Part shown: positions 9,164 through 15,334 of the stretch, piece by piece
How positions within the stretch are numbered: the first letter of the stretch is position 1
Layout of the letters: every line of letters begins with the position of its first letter
Assembly: GCA_039630085.1 (NCBI GenBank)
Contig: JBCNVM010000018.1
Location: 1-15,334, forward strand
Length of the DNA: 15,334 nucleotides
Direction: 5' to 3'
DNA from: Candidatus Caldarchaeales archaeon
GTDB taxonomy: Archaea; Thermoproteota; Nitrososphaeria_A; Caldarchaeales; Calditenuaceae
The notes under the pieces: generated by a model
Told to the model about the DNA's origin: nothing
The model's input: only the letters and a program-made list of their open reading frames with translations
The model's database searches: none
Made by a program: the position numbers and the translations under genes

Positions 9164-9989
9164 CTCCGGCCCTTTCGAGGACCATCCTCGCGAGCCTGTA
9201 GTGGACCTCGTCGACCATGCTCCCCTCCAGTGTCGCCGAGGACCTGCCCGCTGACCTCGCGGCCTCCATGACCTCCACGACCCTCCTGGCCCACTCGACC
9301 TCCTCCCTAGTCGGCGAGAAGGCCTCGTTGATCACCGGCACCTGGTCCGGGTGGACCGCGAGCTTGCCGTCGTAGCCCAGCGACCTTGCCTCGAGGCACT
9401 CCTCCCTGAGCCCCTCGACGTCCGAGAGCTTAGCGTACGGCGTGTCTATGGCCAGGAGCCCGTGGGCCTTCGCCGCGATAGCGATAAGGGACTTCGCGAC
9501 CCTCAGGAGCTCCCTCGAGGGCGATGCCGTGCCCATGCTCAGCGCGAAGTCGAAGGAGCCGAACGCCAGCCCAACTATCGAGCTCCACGAGCCTGCGATT
9601 CCTGCGGCGCCGACGACGCCCTTCGCGCTCTCGATCAGCGCGACGACCTTCACCTCAGCCCCGATCTCCTCGACCTGCCTCCTGAGGGCATCGACCGAGT
9701 CCACGCCGTCGCACTTCGGGAGCACCAGGGCGTCGCAGCCCGCCTCGAGCGCCGCGGCCACGTCCTCCCTGAAGTGGGCGGTCCCCACGGAGTTCACCCT
9801 GACCATCACCTTGGAGCTGGAGTTGGACCTGACGTGCCTCGCGGCCCATCCGAGCGCCCTCCTCGCGTCGGCCTTCCTCTCCTCCGGCACCGAGTCCTCG
9901 AGGTCCAGTATGACCGCGTCGGCCCCGACGCCGGGCGCCCTCCTCACGAACCTCTCCACGTTCGCGGGGACGAAGAGCAGGCTCCTCAC
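9147..9989 (-). CDS. CitE-like (citryl/malyl-CoA) lyase beta-subunit family protein, HpcH/HpaI fold
   Basis: RSLLFVPANVERFVRRAPGVGADAVILDLEDSVPEERKADAR is the family N-terminal signature. 280 aa, GTG start. Confidence 0.75.
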   Translation of the reverse strand: MRSLLFVPANVERFVRRAPGVGADAVILDLEDSVPEERKADARRALGWAARHVRSNSSSKVMVRVNSVGTAHFREDVAAALEAGCDALVLPKCDGVDSVDALRRQVEEIGAEVKVVALIESAKGVVGAAGIAGSWSSIVGLAFGSFDFALSMGTASPSRELLRVAKSLIAIAAKAHGLLAIDTPYAKLSDVEGLREECLEARSLGYDGKLAVHPDQVPVINEAFSPTREEVEWARRVVEVMEAARSAGRSSATLEGSMVDEVHYRLARMVLERAGARGRP

Positions 9990-10914: not shown

Positions 10915-12219
10915 TTGATGGGCGTCTCCGAGCTCAGGGGCCTCTACGTCTCCAGGGGCATCTCGACCCTCCACCCGGTCACGGTGGTCAGGGGCAGGAA
11001 CGCGGTCCTCTACGCCGACGACGGCACCGAGTACATCGACTTCACCAGTGGGGTAGGCGTGACGAACCTCGGCCACTGCGACGAGGAGCTGATCTCGGCG
11101 GCGGTCGAGCAGCTGAGGAGGCTCTGGCACGTCTGCTTCGCGGTCGCCCAGTACGAGCCCTACGTCCGGCTCGCCGAGAGGCTCTCCGAGGTGGCCCCGA
11201 CCGGCGGGAGGAACAAGGCCGCGCTCTTCAACAGCGGCGCCGAGGCCGTGGAGAACGCGGTCAAGGTCGCGAAGCTGGCGACCGGCAGGCCCTTCGTCGT
11301 CTCCTTCCTCAACTCCTTCCACGGCAGGACCTGGCTCGCGCTCACCGCGACGGGCAAGTACCTCCCCTACAAGGCTGGGCTCGAGCCCTTCGTCCCTAAC
11401 GTCGTCCACGCGCCGTACCCTTACTGCTACCGCTGCCCCTTCAACTCGACGTACCCAGAGTGCGGCCTGGTCTGCCTCGACTACCTCAAGAGGTGGGTCT
11501 TCGGCGCGCAGGTCCCTCCCGACAGGGTCTCCGCGGTCCTCTTCGAGCCAGTCCAGGGCGAGGGAGGGTTCGTCGTGCCACCAGGGGACTACGTCAGGGA
11601 GCTCAGGTCCTTCCTCAGCGACCGCGGCGTCCTGCTGGTCGACGACGAGGTCCAAGCCGGGATGGGGAGGACGGGGAGGCTCTTCGCGATCGAGCACTTC
11701 GGCGTCGAGCCCGACCTCATCGCCCTCGGGAAAGCCCTCGCCAACGGCCTCCCGATCTCTGCGGTCGTGGGCAGGTCCGAGCTGATGGACGCGGTCCACC
11801 CGATGGGCCTCGGGACGACCTTCGGGGGCAATCCGGTCGCGGCGGCCGTGGCGCTGAAGGTCCTCGATGCGATCGGGGAGAGGAGGATCCTCGAGAGGGC
11901 GAGGGAGGTCGGCGAGGTCATCGCCTCCAGGCTCGAGGGACTCGCGGAGCGCTTCGAGTTCGTCGGCGACGCGAGGGGTCTGGGCGCGATGAGGGCGGTC
12001 GAGTTCGTGAGGGACAGGAGGACGAAGGAGCCCGCCGCCGACCTGACGGAGGCCGTCGTCGCGGCCGCGAGGAGGAGGGGGCTGCTCCTGCTCAAGGGCG
12101 GACTCTACGGGAACGTGATCAGGCTCCACCCGCCCCTGACGATAGAGCGGGAGCTCCTAGAGGAGGGGCTCGACAGGCTCGAGGACTCGATCGAGGAGGC
12201 CTCCAAGGGCGTCCGGTGA
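10915..12219 (+). CDS. class-III PLP-dependent aminotransferase (4-aminobutyrate/ornithine aminotransferase-like)
   Basis: FTSGVGVTNLGH, NSGAEAVENAVK, FHGRT, FEPVQGEGG, DEVQAGMGRTG, GKALANGLP (PLP Lys) and TFGGNP. The track starts at TTG 10915; ATG 10918 is equally possible. Confidence 0.88.
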   Translation: MMGVSELRGLYVSRGISTLHPVTVVRGRNAVLYADDGTEYIDFTSGVGVTNLGHCDEELISAAVEQLRRLWHVCFAVAQYEPYVRLAERLSEVAPTGGRNKAALFNSGAEAVENAVKVAKLATGRPFVVSFLNSFHGRTWLALTATGKYLPYKAGLEPFVPNVVHAPYPYCYRCPFNSTYPECGLVCLDYLKRWVFGAQVPPDRVSAVLFEPVQGEGGFVVPPGDYVRELRSFLSDRGVLLVDDEVQAGMGRTGRLFAIEHFGVEPDLIALGKALANGLPISAVVGRSELMDAVHPMGLGTTFGGNPVAAAVALKVLDAIGERRILERAREVGEVIASRLEGLAERFEFVGDARGLGAMRAVEFVRDRRTKEPAADLTEAVVAAARRRGLLLLKGGLYGNVIRLHPPLTIERELLEEGLDRLEDSIEEASKGVR

Positions 12220-12229
12220 GGCGGAGAGG

Positions 12230-12236
12230 ATTTAAG
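12230..12236 (+). promoter_or_regulatory. TATA-like box (ATTTAAG) upstream of small ORF 12261-12476
   Basis: Ends 25 nt before the in-frame TTG at 12261. Confidence 0.35.
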
Positions 12237-12260
12237 TTCACGGAGAGGTGTGGGGTCGGC

Positions 12261-12476
12261 TTGACGGCCGTCGACCCCGTTCAGGAGCTCAGGCACCTGG
12301 TCAAGGGTCTCGCGGAGTGCGCCTCGATGTACGGCGGGATCGCGATCAGGGTAAAGGACCCCTCGAGGTTCCCCTGGGGCGAGGTCTTCACGAGGCTCCT
12401 CTCGATGGGCCACGAGGTCTGGCTCGAGCTCGAGGAGGGTCAGATCGTGATCTACTCCAGGCCTCCCACCGAGTGA
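12261..12476 (+). CDS. hypothetical small protein (71 aa)
   Basis: The tail of track ORF 11460-12476 that lies beyond the aminotransferase stop. Host-like codon usage, and a non-repetitive sequence (TAVDPVQELRHLVKGLAECASMYGGIAIRVKDPSRFPWGEVFTRLLSMGHEVWLELEEGQIVIYSRPPTE). TTG start at the canonical distance from a TATA box. Confidence 0.45.
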   Translation: MTAVDPVQELRHLVKGLAECASMYGGIAIRVKDPSRFPWGEVFTRLLSMGHEVWLELEEGQIVIYSRPPTE

Positions 12477-12498
12477 TCCGGACGAATCGTGCTCAGGG

Positions 12499-12505
12499 CT
12501 TAAAT
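12499..12505 (+). promoter_or_regulatory. TATA-like box (CTTAAAT) for the htrA-like gene
   Basis: Ends 27 nt before ATG 12532. Confidence 0.45.
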
Positions 12506-12531
12506 CGTGCGGCGGGCCCGTCGGGCCAGGC

Positions 12532-13716
12532 ATGAAGGCGCTCGCCAACGCCGCGCTGGCCCTCAGTGTCGTCGCGCTCCTGTTGGTCGGGCTGGTGGTC
12601 CTTCAGATCGAGGACGTCGGCACCACCCTAGAGGCCATCAGGGGCAGGCTCCAGTCGCTCGAGCTGAACGTCAGCGCTGTCCAGGCCGCCGTCACAAGGA
12701 CCGTCACGGTCACCACGACGCCCGCTCAGACCGCAGTCCTCCCGCCGCCGCAGATCGCTCATCTGAACATCACCGAGCTCTTCGAGCGGGTCAAGCACTC
12801 CGTGGTGGTCGTCAGGGTCTACTACAGGTTCACGTCCGGGATAGGGTCGGGCTTCGTCTACGACGAGCGCGGCCACATAATAACCAATCAGCACGTGGTC
12901 GCCGACGCGGTCGCGATCTTCGTCGACTTCCTCGACAGGACGACGCTGCCCGCGAGGGTCGTGGGGACCGACGTCGACACGGACCTGGCCGTGATCAAGG
13001 TCGACCCGCCTCCCGAGATGAGGCTCGTCCCGCTCCCGCTCGGGGACTCCAAGTCCCTCAAGATAGGGGACACCGTGATAGCCGTCGGCAACCCGTTCGG
13101 GCTCCAGGGGTCCGTCACGGTCGGGATCGTCAGCCAGAAGGGGAGGCTGCTCCCGTCGGGCAGGGGCTACCTCATCCCCGGGGTGATCCAGATAGACGCG
13201 GCGATCAACCGGGGCAACTCAGGGGGGCCGCTGCTAAACTCGAGGGGCGAGGTGGTGGGCGTCACGACGGCCATCGAGACGACCACGGGCCTCTTCGCTG
13301 GGGTAGGGTACGCGATACCGTCCTCGATCGTCAAGAGGGTCGTCCCCGAGCTGATCGCGAAGGGCCGCTTCTCCCACAGCTACATAGGGATCTCAGGGAA
13401 GGAGATCAATTCGATGGTCGCGCAGCAGCTGGGTTTCCCGTTCAAGAGCGGCCTCCTGATCGAGAACGTCTCCCCTAACAGCCCCGCCGCCACAGCCGGC
13501 CTCAGGGGAGGGAACAGGGCCACGACGATCGCCGGCGAGAACTACGTCGTCGGGGGCGACCTAATAATCGCGGTCGACGGCCAGCCCGTGACCTCCCTCG
13601 ACGACCTCCTCAACTACCTGATCGAGAACACCTCGCCCGGCACCAGGGTTACCCTCACGGTCTACAGGGACGGCCAGGTCAGGAACGTCGAGGTCGTGCT
13701 GGGAGTCAGGCCCTGA
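12532..13716 (+). CDS. HtrA/DegP-family serine protease with N-terminal membrane anchor and C-terminal PDZ domain
   Basis: Catalytic triad contexts HIITNQHVV, DTDLAVIKV and GNSGGPLLN. Hydrophobic N-terminus ALALSVVALLLVGLVVL. PDZ-like GLLIENVSPNSPAATAGLRGGN...GDLIIAVDGQPV. Confidence 0.88.
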   Translation: MKALANAALALSVVALLLVGLVVLQIEDVGTTLEAIRGRLQSLELNVSAVQAAVTRTVTVTTTPAQTAVLPPPQIAHLNITELFERVKHSVVVVRVYYRFTSGIGSGFVYDERGHIITNQHVVADAVAIFVDFLDRTTLPARVVGTDVDTDLAVIKVDPPPEMRLVPLPLGDSKSLKIGDTVIAVGNPFGLQGSVTVGIVSQKGRLLPSGRGYLIPGVIQIDAAINRGNSGGPLLNSRGEVVGVTTAIETTTGLFAGVGYAIPSSIVKRVVPELIAKGRFSHSYIGISGKEINSMVAQQLGFPFKSGLLIENVSPNSPAATAGLRGGNRATTIAGENYVVGGDLIIAVDGQPVTSLDDLLNYLIENTSPGTRVTLTVYRDGQVRNVEVVLGVRP

Positions 13717-13724
13717 CGCATCGG

Positions 13725-13733
13725 CTTTATATT
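13725..13733 (+). promoter_or_regulatory. TATA box (CTTTATATT) for the GNAT gene
   Basis: Ends 27 nt before ATG 13760. Confidence 0.5.
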
Positions 13734-13759
13734 CCGAGCGAATCCTCAGCTCGGGAGCC

Positions 13760-14242
13760 ATGTCCTCCGAGTTCAGGATCAGGAGGGCGACGCAGGCGGA
13801 CCTCGAGGCGCTCGTGGACCTGCTGATCAGGAACAAGAGGCTCAACGAGGAGTTCGACCCGATGCTCGCGGTCTCTAGCGAGATCCGCTCCGCCGCGCGC
13901 AAGTACCTCTCAAACGCGCTCTCCGACGACAGGTCGCTCGTCCTGGTGGCCGAGGACCAGAGGGGTAGGCCGACGGCCTTCCTGAAGGCCGACATCGTCG
14001 ACAGGGTCTTCTACTCCCCGGAGAAGGAGGGCGTCATCAGGGAGTTCTACGTCCTTCCGGAGTACAGGAGGAAGGGGTTGGGGAAGCTGATGATCGACGA
14101 GGCGTTCAAGGAGCTGACGGGCATGGGCGCGGGCGTCATCACCGCGGAGTTCCCCTCCCAGCACAAGATCGCGGTCTCGTTCTACGAGAGCATGGGCTTC
14201 AGGCCGCTCTTCAGCAAGTACGCGAAGGAGCTGAAGAAGTGA
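13760..14242 (+). CDS. GNAT-family N-acetyltransferase
   Basis: 160 aa. IRRATQADLEAL start and the acetyl-CoA motif YRRKGLGKLMIDEA (R/Q-x-x-G-x-G/A). Confidence 0.8.
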   Translation: MSSEFRIRRATQADLEALVDLLIRNKRLNEEFDPMLAVSSEIRSAARKYLSNALSDDRSLVLVAEDQRGRPTAFLKADIVDRVFYSPEKEGVIREFYVLPEYRRKGLGKLMIDEAFKELTGMGAGVITAEFPSQHKIAVSFYESMGFRPLFSKYAKELKK

Positions 14243-14244
14243 GC

Positions 14245-14271
14245 TGGTGCGGCCGCCGGGATTTGAACCCG
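14245..14271 (-). other. isolated 3'-terminal tRNA fragment (T-arm from position 50, acceptor 3' strand, discriminator, CCA); putative att-site remnant
   Basis: The minus strand reads CGGG TTCAAAT CCCGG CGGCCGC A CCA. The base at position 49 (A) cannot pair with G65. No GCGGCCG 5' acceptor, D-arm or anticodon arm lies upstream. Confidence 0.6.
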
Positions 14272-14357
14272 TCAATTGAGCTAGGAGATAACTTAGTCGG
14301 CACTTTGTCTGAGAAAAGCGGCCATTTTTATGGGTTAACATCCCCATTTAAAGGACG

Positions 14358-14364
14358 CTTATAG
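14358..14364 (+). promoter_or_regulatory. TATA-like box (CTTATAG) for the methyltransferase ORF
   Basis: Ends 27 nt before ATG 14391. Further A/T boxes lie at 14324-14331 and 14345-14353. Confidence 0.4.
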
Positions 14365-14390
14365 TCAGGCGCTAATTGGGTCCTCTGAGG

Positions 14391-15334
14391 ATGGCGGTCG
14401 CGAGCGAGGAGCTCAAGTTCGATGTGAACTTCTGGATCTCCAAAGTCCGGGAGCTCGGCTATCCGGTGAAGGAGGAGGAGCTGAGCGTTAAGGTCCTCAG
14501 GGAAAGGGGCGTCATTCCGCAGGGCGCCGACGTGAGGAGGGTGTTGAGGCTGTACGTCGACGACTACGTCGAGTGCGCGATAGTGGAGTTCGGCAACAAG
14601 ATGACTAGGAGCCTCTGCACGAGGATCGCGAGGAGCTGGAAGAAGCATAGGTTGGGCATCCGCCCCCTGCTCGCGTTCACCGACGGAACCGACAGCTACA
14701 TGGTGACAATTCCGGGACCCGGCTCTGAAGGGGAGGCGAGGGTCCTCTGGCTTCACGAGAGGCTCTACAGGACGGACAATGAGGTCATCAAGTCGCTTGA
14801 GTACAGAGGGGACCCTGAGAAGACGCGGGAGGCGTACGACAAGGAGTTCCTGCCCTACGAGCGGGTAAGGGAGGAGTTCTTCGAAGAATACCGCAAACTC
14901 TACGAGGAAATAGTAAATGTAACTAAGAGCGTATTACGCGAGGAAGCCTCCTCTTACGCCCAGAGGTTCTTGGGCAGGCTCATGTTCCTCTACTTCCTCC
15001 AGAGGAAGAGGTGGCTGAAGGGCGACAAACGTTTCATCGATAAGATCAGCGACTACTTCGAGCTGAACAGGGTCTTCTACAGGTCGTTAAGCGAGGGCCT
15101 TGACGGCCTCCCCTTCCTCAACGGCTCTGTCTTCGAGCGAGAGGAGTACCTCACGGAAGAGGTCGAGAAGAGGCTCGCGAAGGAGATGAATGCGGTCTTC
15201 CTCAGAGCTAGGAGGCTCTTCAATGAGTACAACTTCACGGTCGACGAGTCGTCGCCGCTCGAGGTCGAGGTCAGCATCGACCCGCTGCTTCTCGGTACCG
15301 TGCTCGAGAACATGCTCCCGGAACACGAGCGAGG
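14391..15334 (+). CDS. N-terminal part (314 codons, 3'-truncated by the window) of an Eco57I/type IIG- or BREX PglX-like N6-adenine DNA methyltransferase
   Basis: My own translation, as the ORF is not in the track. ATG 14391 is preceded by an in-frame TAA at 14373, and there is no stop to nt 15334. Segments AQRFLGRLMFLYFLQRKRWL, FY..L....LPFLNGSVFE and YNFTVDESSPLEVEVSIDPLLLGTVLENMLPE match the helical region that precedes the SAM-binding domain in this enzyme family. Confidence 0.7.
   Translation, partial: MAVASEELKFDVNFWISKVRELGYPVKEEELSVKVLRERGVIPQGADVRRVLRLYVDDYVECAIVEFGNKMTRSLCTRIARSWKKHRLGIRPLLAFTDGTDSYMVTIPGPGSEGEARVLWLHERLYRTDNEVIKSLEYRGDPEKTREAYDKEFLPYERVREEFFEEYRKLYEEIVNVTKSVLREEASSYAQRFLGRLMFLYFLQRKRWLKGDKRFIDKISDYFELNRVFYRSLSEGLDGLPFLNGSVFEREEYLTEEVEKRLAKEMNAVFLRARRLFNEYNFTVDESSPLEVEVSIDPLLLGTVLENMLPEHER

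Follow-up and report, generated by a model that had tools for sequence, protein, structure and literature searches.

Does a reading frame that runs off the end of an archaeal contig without a stop belong to a real gene, and if so, to a defence system whose other parts lie beyond that end? The question is raised by a stretch of 15,334 nucleotides from a Candidatus Caldarchaeales archaeon (assembly GCA_039630085.1, contig JBCNVM010000018.1), which is analysed here as a whole and referred to as the window. On its forward strand, translation from the ATG at 14391 gives 314 sense codons and not a single stop before the frame leaves the contig at 15334. In a preliminary description, made from the letters alone, this frame was held to be the start of a type IIG / PglX-like DNA methyltransferase at the edge of a probable island, and perhaps the first gene of a defence system with its remainder off-window. 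In this study I propose a joint explanation that I consider likely, namely that the frame is the N-terminal third of a single-chain Eco57I/MmeI-type N6-adenine methyltransferase-specificity protein of about 1020-1060 amino acids (aa), that restriction is supplied in trans by a phospholipase D (PLD, HKD)-SNF2 protein encoded by the next gene, and that the gene marks the left border of an island that was acquired horizontally, by insertion into a tRNA-Gly gene.

A predicted methyltransferase head and the partner gene of its relatives

The frame was absent from the six-frame list that accompanied the preliminary description, and the reason given there, that it runs past the contig end, is correct; its translation is exactly the peptide quoted at the time. 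By its sequence the frame is to be regarded as a real gene and not as a chance frame, because homologues are numerous. A word-indexed search retrieved 55 of them (best E 1e-114 outside the source contig), and an exhaustive search of 1.84 billion representatives gave 2298 matches at E<=0.001, the top 150 of which are mostly 1000-1300 aa long. At NCBI the gene starts with the TTG at 14376 (P0001, 'hypothetical protein ABDH63_07105, partial', 320 aa, 100% identical), from which the frame is already open, the nearest upstream TAA being at 14373-14375. The ATG at 14391, with a leaderless or short-leader mRNA, seems no less likely a start than the annotated one. Two TATA-like elements, TTTAAA and TTATAG, lie 27-44 nt 5' of this ATG and could represent an archaeal promoter for such an mRNA; a scan for sigma-70 promoters, a model that does not apply here, found none.

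To settle the identity of the protein, the preliminary description had suggested profile searches, a look for S-adenosylmethionine (SAM)-binding and NPPY/F motifs in the continuation, and a search for brx/pgl partners. The profile searches with Pfam and PADLOC direct the visible region to the type IIG family: the PADLOC profile 'Type IIG restriction enzyme-methyltransferase' PDLC03601 is the sole match in the profile library for the 314-aa fragment (E=1.5e-11, aa 162-311 against positions 210-372 of 1110), with zero matches in Pfam and NCBIfam and none to the PADLOC PglX profiles at E<=10. The identification as an Eco57I-type methyltransferase follows from three intact relatives, because these carry the full motif set. 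They are P0219 (1023 aa, 68% identical over aa 2-314, named 'DNA methyltransferase [Candidatus Caldarchaeum sp.]' at NCBI), P0057 (1023 aa, 54% identical to the window protein) and P0058 (1063 aa, 59% identical). Past the point where the window ends, all three continue with G(R/K)KGTFYTP, DPAVGSGGF (motif I) and NPPYV (motif IV), and all three match Eco57I (E 1e-25 to 1e-30), MmeI_Mtase and M_Eco57I_C in Pfam. What lies off-window in the relatives is a gamma-class core with motifs X (TFYTP), I and IV, followed by an Eco57I-type target-recognition domain (M_Eco57I_C), the corresponding region being off-contig here. The pattern that the preliminary description had singled out coincides with the best-conserved columns of the family alignment (FLGRLMFLYFLQ, LPFLNGSxFE, YNFTVDE and IDPxLLGTVxENMLPE), and its proposed place directly in front of the SAM-binding core is confirmed by the intact relatives (GxKGTFYTP, DPAVGSGGF), as is the presence of SAM-binding and NPPY motifs.

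For the full-length relatives, the type IIG profiles of PADLOC score 1e-43 to 1e-47, versus 1e-19 to 1e-22 for PglX, and the best-scoring profiles for the fragment and the full-length relatives alike are REase_MTase_IIG PDLC03601/PDLC03596. Against PDB sequences the full-length relatives match with their catalytic core only, in three cases in total, including M.BseCI (6.6e-11) and BrxX (8e-6); MmeI, whose structure is solved, did not turn up in the searches with the family profile and with the full-length relatives. Thus, from the label 'type IIG / PglX-like' the Eco57I/MmeI-type IIG part is retained, based on PADLOC and on the Pfam matches of relatives, and the BREX/PglX part is dropped, since brx/pgl partners are lacking in the related loci. 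I would use 'type IIG' for architecture and homology only, as a nuclease domain in cis is not detectable in the sequences. A metagenome scan with the single window protein found no relative, a scan of viral contigs gave only relatives of about 30% identity, and when the downstream part of P0056 served as query, no near-identical fragment emerged as a possible piece of the same metagenome-assembled genome (MAG).

The visible protein consists of two structural parts in an AlphaFold2 model computed with 19 family sequences (mean predicted local distance difference test score, pLDDT, 83.4; 86-97 over aa 11-150). The first, up to aa ~135, is an alpha/beta domain with helices at 12-21, 73-86 and 127-134 and strands at 29-31, 48-56, 60-67, 91-97, 102-106 and 116-122. 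Long helices follow (156-205, 222-235 and 256-278), and FLGRLMFLYFLQ and LPFLNGSxFE are located in them. Where distant full-length relatives align with these helices, they match MmeI_hel (PF20465), and the long-helix part would therefore be equivalent to the 'helicase spacer' domain of MmeI, as far as model and alignment allow.

The next large gene encodes a PLD(HKD)-SNF2 helicase in nine of nine related lineages with downstream DNA (L001, L006, L007, L009, L010, L011, L015, L016 and L151), although the partner is fragmented in L010, only its start is seen in L016, and it follows an inserted HEPN gene in L151. The partner genes code for about 1010-1070 aa with PLDc_2, SNF2-related, ResIII/DEAD and Helicase_C domains. 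Of seven junctions that were measured, six have a partner start that overlaps the methyltransferase stop by 17-26 nt; the two genes of L011 abut. HxK...GSxN is present in L001 and in the partial frame of L016, and a Walker A motif (GLGKT) and a DEAH box occur in all six translated partners. The top PADLOC profile of the partner is C3a139 'HKD+Snf2' (E=5.7e-48), with DrmD, BrxH, DpdE and HmaA far lower; the C3a139 model goes back to a survey of genes associated with type III CRISPR (PMC6546367). No PglZ, BrxC, BrxL, BrxA/B, DUF499, DUF1156, DUF3780 or DUF1998/DrmA was found in the related loci examined. The idea of a first gene with the rest of its system off-window is hence borne out in the relatives, but the rest is a PLD(HKD)-SNF2 helicase-nuclease in place of the brx/pgl genes that were sought. 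Because the related loci are devoid of BREX, DISARM and DUF499 genes, I classify the system, by sequence, as a two-gene ATP-dependent restriction-like module and not as BREX.

The same pair is found on plasmids of distant hosts. On pJM1F of Lactococcus cremoris, a methyltransferase of 1106 aa (PDLC03601, E=1.9e-218) comes after a PLD+SNF2 protein of 1233 aa, and on pBNX82-1 of Haloferax alexandrinus, the methyltransferase (1291 aa) comes first and the PLD+SNF2 protein (1168 aa) second; both plasmid partners have the same C3a139 match and the Pfam set PLDc_2, SNF2 and Helicase_C. On plasmids from Deinococcus, Planktothrix, Prevotella and Halorussus, annotation names such as 'helicase-related' or SNF2 occur beside or a few genes from the homologue. 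Milman and co-workers (2023, PMC9881135) listed, among loci that bear inversions, 'Cj0031-like' Type II R-M coding sequences with an adjacent phospholipase D/SNF helicase coding sequence. The module has thus already been noted in the literature, and the gene studied here is one more, fairly typical representative of a widespread type.

Some of these loci carry additional genes. In pJM1F (8763-10230 of L153), an inverted TaqI_C specificity gene and an Mpi-family invertase lie directly 3' of the methyltransferase gene, which looks like a specificity shufflon on the PLD-SNF2 and methyltransferase pair. The HEPN-domain gene of L151 (3669-4409, 246 aa, a weak Pfam match) stands between an intact 1063-aa methyltransferase gene and the PLD-SNF2 gene, and could be an accessory RNase effector. 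In L001, a 938-aa open reading frame 3' of the PLD-SNF2 gene (16162-18978) has no Pfam or PADLOC match and is not conserved in the other related loci.

How could such a pair work? I infer the intact continuation of the gene, a partner gene in this genome and each of the biochemical steps, which are drawn from the relatives and, by comparison, from Type III, Type ISP and the predicted BR systems. The methyltransferase-specificity protein would recognise a short DNA sequence and methylate an adenine there on the host DNA. It would itself be free of nuclease activity, with restriction coming in trans from the PLD(HKD)-nuclease/SNF2-ATPase fusion of the next gene, which may be recruited or activated at unmethylated sites, translocate at the expense of ATP and cut the DNA. 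For a surface through which the pair is coupled, the N-terminal domain (aa ~1-135) would be the first choice, because it is located where type IIG enzymes hold their nuclease in cis. As there is one HxK per partner chain, dimerisation would be needed for a complete PLD active site. In Nuc and BfiI, the PLD active site is completed by dimerisation.

The tRNA-Gly fragment and the probable island edge

Upstream of the gene, the window contains a 27-nt sequence that matches exactly the 3' ends of tRNA-Gly genes (anticodons TCC, GCC and CCC) in more than 120 archaeal genomes, and that was not retrieved in any of 200 shuffled controls. It comprises four of the five T-stem bases, the T-loop, the T-stem, the acceptor strand, the discriminator and CCA; in the alignments, identity to tRNA-Gly genes ends inside the T-stem and no tRNA body lies beyond. 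A complete, perhaps intron-bearing, tRNA at 14245-14330 was considered and rejected, as Rfam at E<=10 recovers the T-arm only and identity stops at the T-stem. The orientation of the fragment fits a displaced 3' end with an element to its right, and GC content, which is 0.63-0.70 at 11000-14200, is only 0.54-0.60 within the reading frame, a drop from roughly 65% to 57%. Both the att-like tRNA fragment and the A/T-richer DNA behind it, as put forward in the preliminary description, are therefore real. In the relatives, the left flank has no synteny with that of the window, the methyltransferase gene alone being held in common. The tRNA-Gly fragment, the GC drop and the non-syntenic contexts of the relatives together are the reason to place the gene at the left edge of an acquired island, and this placement is a component of the joint explanation favoured above. 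In L152, a tyrosine integrase lies 3.7 kb upstream of a 72%-identical gene, and no tRNA was found there.

The housekeeping flank on the left ends with an acetyltransferase gene (Table 1), and its other genes encode AdoHcy hydrolase, the ribosomal proteins L2 and L3, an HpcH aldolase and an HtrA-like protease. At 620-692 of the window, on the minus strand, Rfam detects a tRNA with 39.3 bits (gathering score 29), which is absent from the ARAGORN results and has an atypical 3' half.

Table 1. Features at the right end of the window (window positions) and lesions in related genes (aa positions of the reference)
Feature	Position	Strand	Basis or remark
GNAT acetyltransferase, last gene of the higher-GC housekeeping left flank	13760..14242	+	
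tRNA-Gly 3' fragment, candidate att remnant	14245..14271	-	exact 27-nt match
TATA-like elements, A/T-rich: TTTAAA, TTATAG	14347-14352, 14359-14364	+	read from sequence
5' part of predicted methyltransferase-specificity gene, 314 codons, open-ended	14391..15334	+	homology, 68% to P0219
Family-specific N-terminal alpha/beta domain, aa ~1-135	14391..14795	+	AlphaFold2; position of the type IIG nuclease domain
Long-helix spacer, aa ~156-278, with FLGRLMFLYFLQRK and LPFLNGSxFE	14856..15224	+	AlphaFold2; PADLOC aa 162-311
YNFTVDE...IDPLLLGTVLENMLPEHER block, aa 278-314	15222..15334	+	conserved; in relatives followed by G(R/K)KGTFYTP, DPAVGSGGF
N-terminal frameshift, L005	reference aa ~22		
Loss of catalytic core (motifs I-IV), L011	reference aa 364-649		
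-1 frameshift, L001-4	reference aa 366		identical in at least 24 Illumina contigs
4-nt deletion, L007-9	reference aa 369		
In-frame TGA between two compensating shifts, L010	reference aa 373		
Truncation, L012-14	reference aa 377		
End of reading frame, P0013	reference aa 377		
1-nt deletion, L006	reference aa 419		
In-frame stops, L015	reference aa 437 and ~660		

Arguments against and alternative readings

Several points weigh against the reading of the gene as part of a functional two-gene module on an island. The sequence beyond codon 314 is off the contig, and the methyltransferase motifs and the partner gene are seen in relatives only. Among the relatives sampled, most are disrupted, be it by a frameshift, by in-frame stops or by the loss of the catalytic core. 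In the literature I found no functional or biochemical study of any member of the module, the mechanism being by analogy only, and the coupling role of the N-terminal domain is a guess. As to the island, the window holds no integrase, no second att copy and no intact tRNA-Gly, and in L005, the closest relative with context (74% identical), the gene is located 5' of an intact tRNA-Ile (9344-9420, minus strand, about 0.4 kb from the gene), a geometry unlike integration at a tRNA 3' end and unlike that of the window.

The alternative that survives best takes the gene for a pseudogene, or for a contingency locus in its 'off' state, so that this genome would have no functional system. With nine related lineages disrupted (Table 1) and three intact full-length genes only (P0219, P0057 and P0058), this is a serious possibility, which I nonetheless consider somewhat less probable than its opposite. 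Against it stand the 314 window codons, which are intact and align in one frame over reference aa 9-321, the intact copies in the same order (Ca. Caldarchaeum), and the selection on the family: between lineages, the ratio of nonsynonymous to synonymous substitution rates (dN/dS) is 0.03-0.62 over the segments compared, and 0.06-0.18 in two long segments of about 360 codons, and the family is therefore under purifying selection, though individual copies are often off. Between L007 and L009, after their common frameshift, dN/dS is 0.25, based on only 20 substitutions in a region that looks recombinant. The chances that the window copy is intact beyond codon 314 are roughly even.

The lesions are not spread evenly. 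Six of the nine first breaks fall into a 15-residue linker, rich in K/R/E and in purines, at aa 363-377, just before motif I; its equivalent in this genome would be about 50-60 codons past 15334, off-window. The clustering may reflect a hot spot of mutation or of on/off switching, a point at which a split is tolerated, or in part a bias of sampling or assembly. A sampling bias is likely, as the word-indexed search, which came first, gave no protein longer than about 600 aa, and at some disrupted loci errors of long-read assembly are possible. The homologues first retrieved were all of 547 aa or less, and several reading frames end at aa 363-380, with the methyltransferase resuming in the -1 frame, from which the idea of a split gene had arisen. 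An obligatory split gene or a programmed -1 frameshift was rejected, since intact genes of 1023-1063 aa exist, the lesions are heterogeneous, from a 1-nt deletion to the loss of 286 aa, and no X XXY YYZ slippery site was seen at the junctions.

In L011 (10898-12088), the disrupted methyltransferase gene keeps its N-terminal part and the specificity domain, and adjoins an intact 1020-aa PLD-SNF2 gene. The contigs of several independent MAGs end within the gene, as the window does at 15334, L005 at aa ~450 and L152 at aa 677, and the NCBI 'partial' proteins P0007, P0021, P0032 and P0033 likewise end inside it, which suggests strain-level variation that breaks assemblies. The end of L152, at 'HPIQF', is the point where the stop lies in L009 and L015 and where the variable specificity domain starts.

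A second alternative is a classical single-chain type IIG restriction-modification enzyme, in which the N-terminal domain would be a divergent but active endonuclease and no partner would be needed. Length and domain order agree with this, the top profile is the REBASE-derived 'REase_MTase_IIG', and one relative, P0017, has D-x8-E-V-K at the site of the D-x9-E-x-K nuclease motif of MmeI. However, the lysine of the expected E-x-K site is kept in this one of about 25 aligned relatives and missing in all others, the window protein having E-F-G. The alignments of 19 and 26 sequences have no conserved D...ExK, and the residues that are invariant in the N-terminal domain (R81, L119, T128, D129 and S135) do not include a PD-(D/E)xK triad, which R81, T128, D129 and S135 do not form. 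Foldseek gave no PDB fold match better than E=0.15 and none to any nuclease; the family profile found nothing at E<=1 among PDB sequences, the single sequence only noise, and aa 1-160 have no match in Pfam, NCBIfam or PDB. The N-terminal domain, with a (Y/T)(R/H)TD motif, can be aligned in more distant Eco57I-type proteins of 1000-1230 aa, and these have no Pfam nuclease domain either. The remark in the preliminary description, that the first ~170 residues have no clear PD-(D/E)xK, thus holds. An active PD-(D/E)xK domain was rejected for want of a conserved triad and a fold match, and because a Pfam nuclease is also lacking in the relatives, the domain is treated here as a putative non-nuclease module. 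With the conserved, overlapping HKD-SNF2 gene favouring a nuclease in trans, I regard the classical enzyme as very unlikely. That the gene encodes the PglX/BrxX of a BREX system with brxA/B/C, pglZ and brxL off-window is hardly credible, for even though PglX is an Eco57I-type methyltransferase without nuclease, its PADLOC profiles match the full-length relatives (1e-19 to 1e-22) and BrxX is among their only three PDB sequence matches, the type IIG profiles are better by some 20 orders of magnitude, and the related loci lack the Pfam families of PglZ, BrxC, BrxL, BrxA and BrxB and have HKD-SNF2 in nine of nine cases.

The two-gene module with a partner in trans is therefore the reading I prefer. 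A bolder version of it, in which Eco57I-type methyltransferases with PLD(HKD)-SNF2 proteins would make up a distinct and widespread ATP-dependent restriction class of bacteria and archaea, coupled by the nuclease-free N-terminal domain and switched on and off at the purine-rich linker in populations of thermophilic archaea, is tentative, and I think it rather unlikely to hold in full. For annotation, the consequence is that what now stands as 'hypothetical protein, partial' in a Caldarchaeales MAG is to be read as the first part of an adenine methyltransferase gene, at the edge of an island associated with tRNA-Gly, and that REBASE-derived profiles file the module under 'type IIG' despite the lack of a detectable nuclease in cis. 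Characterisation of the module could reveal a minimal motor-driven restriction architecture, available in thermostable versions, and a role for an N-terminal domain without structural relative.

Comparison with known systems

With type IIG enzymes of the Eco57I/MmeI kind, the family shares its size (1023-1063 aa in intact relatives) and the order of an N-terminal domain, a helical spacer, a gamma-class N6A NPPY methyltransferase and a C-terminal target-recognition domain. It differs from these enzymes in an N-terminal domain without recognisable PD-(D/E)xK, and in the conserved helicase-nuclease partner of the relatives. Classical type IIG enzymes are not known to need a partner helicase-nuclease gene. 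BREX PglX/BrxX is similar in being an Eco57I-type adenine methyltransferase without nuclease that depends on partners, and there are weak profile and PDB matches, whereas the related loci are without PglZ, BrxC, BrxL and BrxA/B and have HKD-SNF2 as partner.

Among the systems described with an HKD-Swi2/Snf2 effector, the Type-2 BR systems come nearest. In these, the effector is a Swi2/Snf2 helicase that carries an HKD nuclease at its N-terminus, and it stands beside an N6-adenine methyltransferase of the DUF1156 kind; a DUF499 ATPase and DUF3780 belong to them as well, and the systems are predicted to work in a restriction-like manner (PMC12839542). Hma is composed of a DUF499 ATPase, a DUF1156 methyltransferase and a Swi2/Snf2 helicase-nuclease (PMC12839542, PMC11232893). 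In contrast to both, the methyltransferase here is of the Eco57I type and not DUF1156, and the related loci are without DUF499 and DUF3780; for Hma, moreover, the HmaA profile scores far below C3a139 for the partner. Class 1 DISARM (DrmD, DrmMI, DrmA, DrmB and DrmC) has an SNF2 helicase, a PLD nuclease and an Eco57I-like methyltransferase in common with the module, with DrmD and DrmMI as secondary matches. However, DrmA and DrmB (DUF1998) are missing from the related loci, PLD and SNF2 are one polypeptide in the module, and its core genes are only two. Membership in BREX, DISARM or BR/Hma was rejected, as the partner genes required are not in the related loci.

In its position, the gene resembles integrative elements at tRNA 3' ends, the 27-nt tRNA-Gly fragment lying exactly at the junction of housekeeping genes and lower-GC defence gene. 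It differs from these in that the window has no integrase, intact tRNA-Gly or second repeat, the remaining island being off-contig.

Closest in gene content are the pairs of the Milman type and those of Lactococcus and Haloferax, with the same two genes (seen in the relatives of the window gene). The window protein matches the Lactococcus methyltransferase from aa 43-61 and that of Haloferax from aa 184 onward, although identity is only 23-35%, and in Lactococcus the gene order is reversed and an invertible specificity cassette is added. The module hence recurs from Lactococcus to haloarchaea to hot-spring Thermoproteota.

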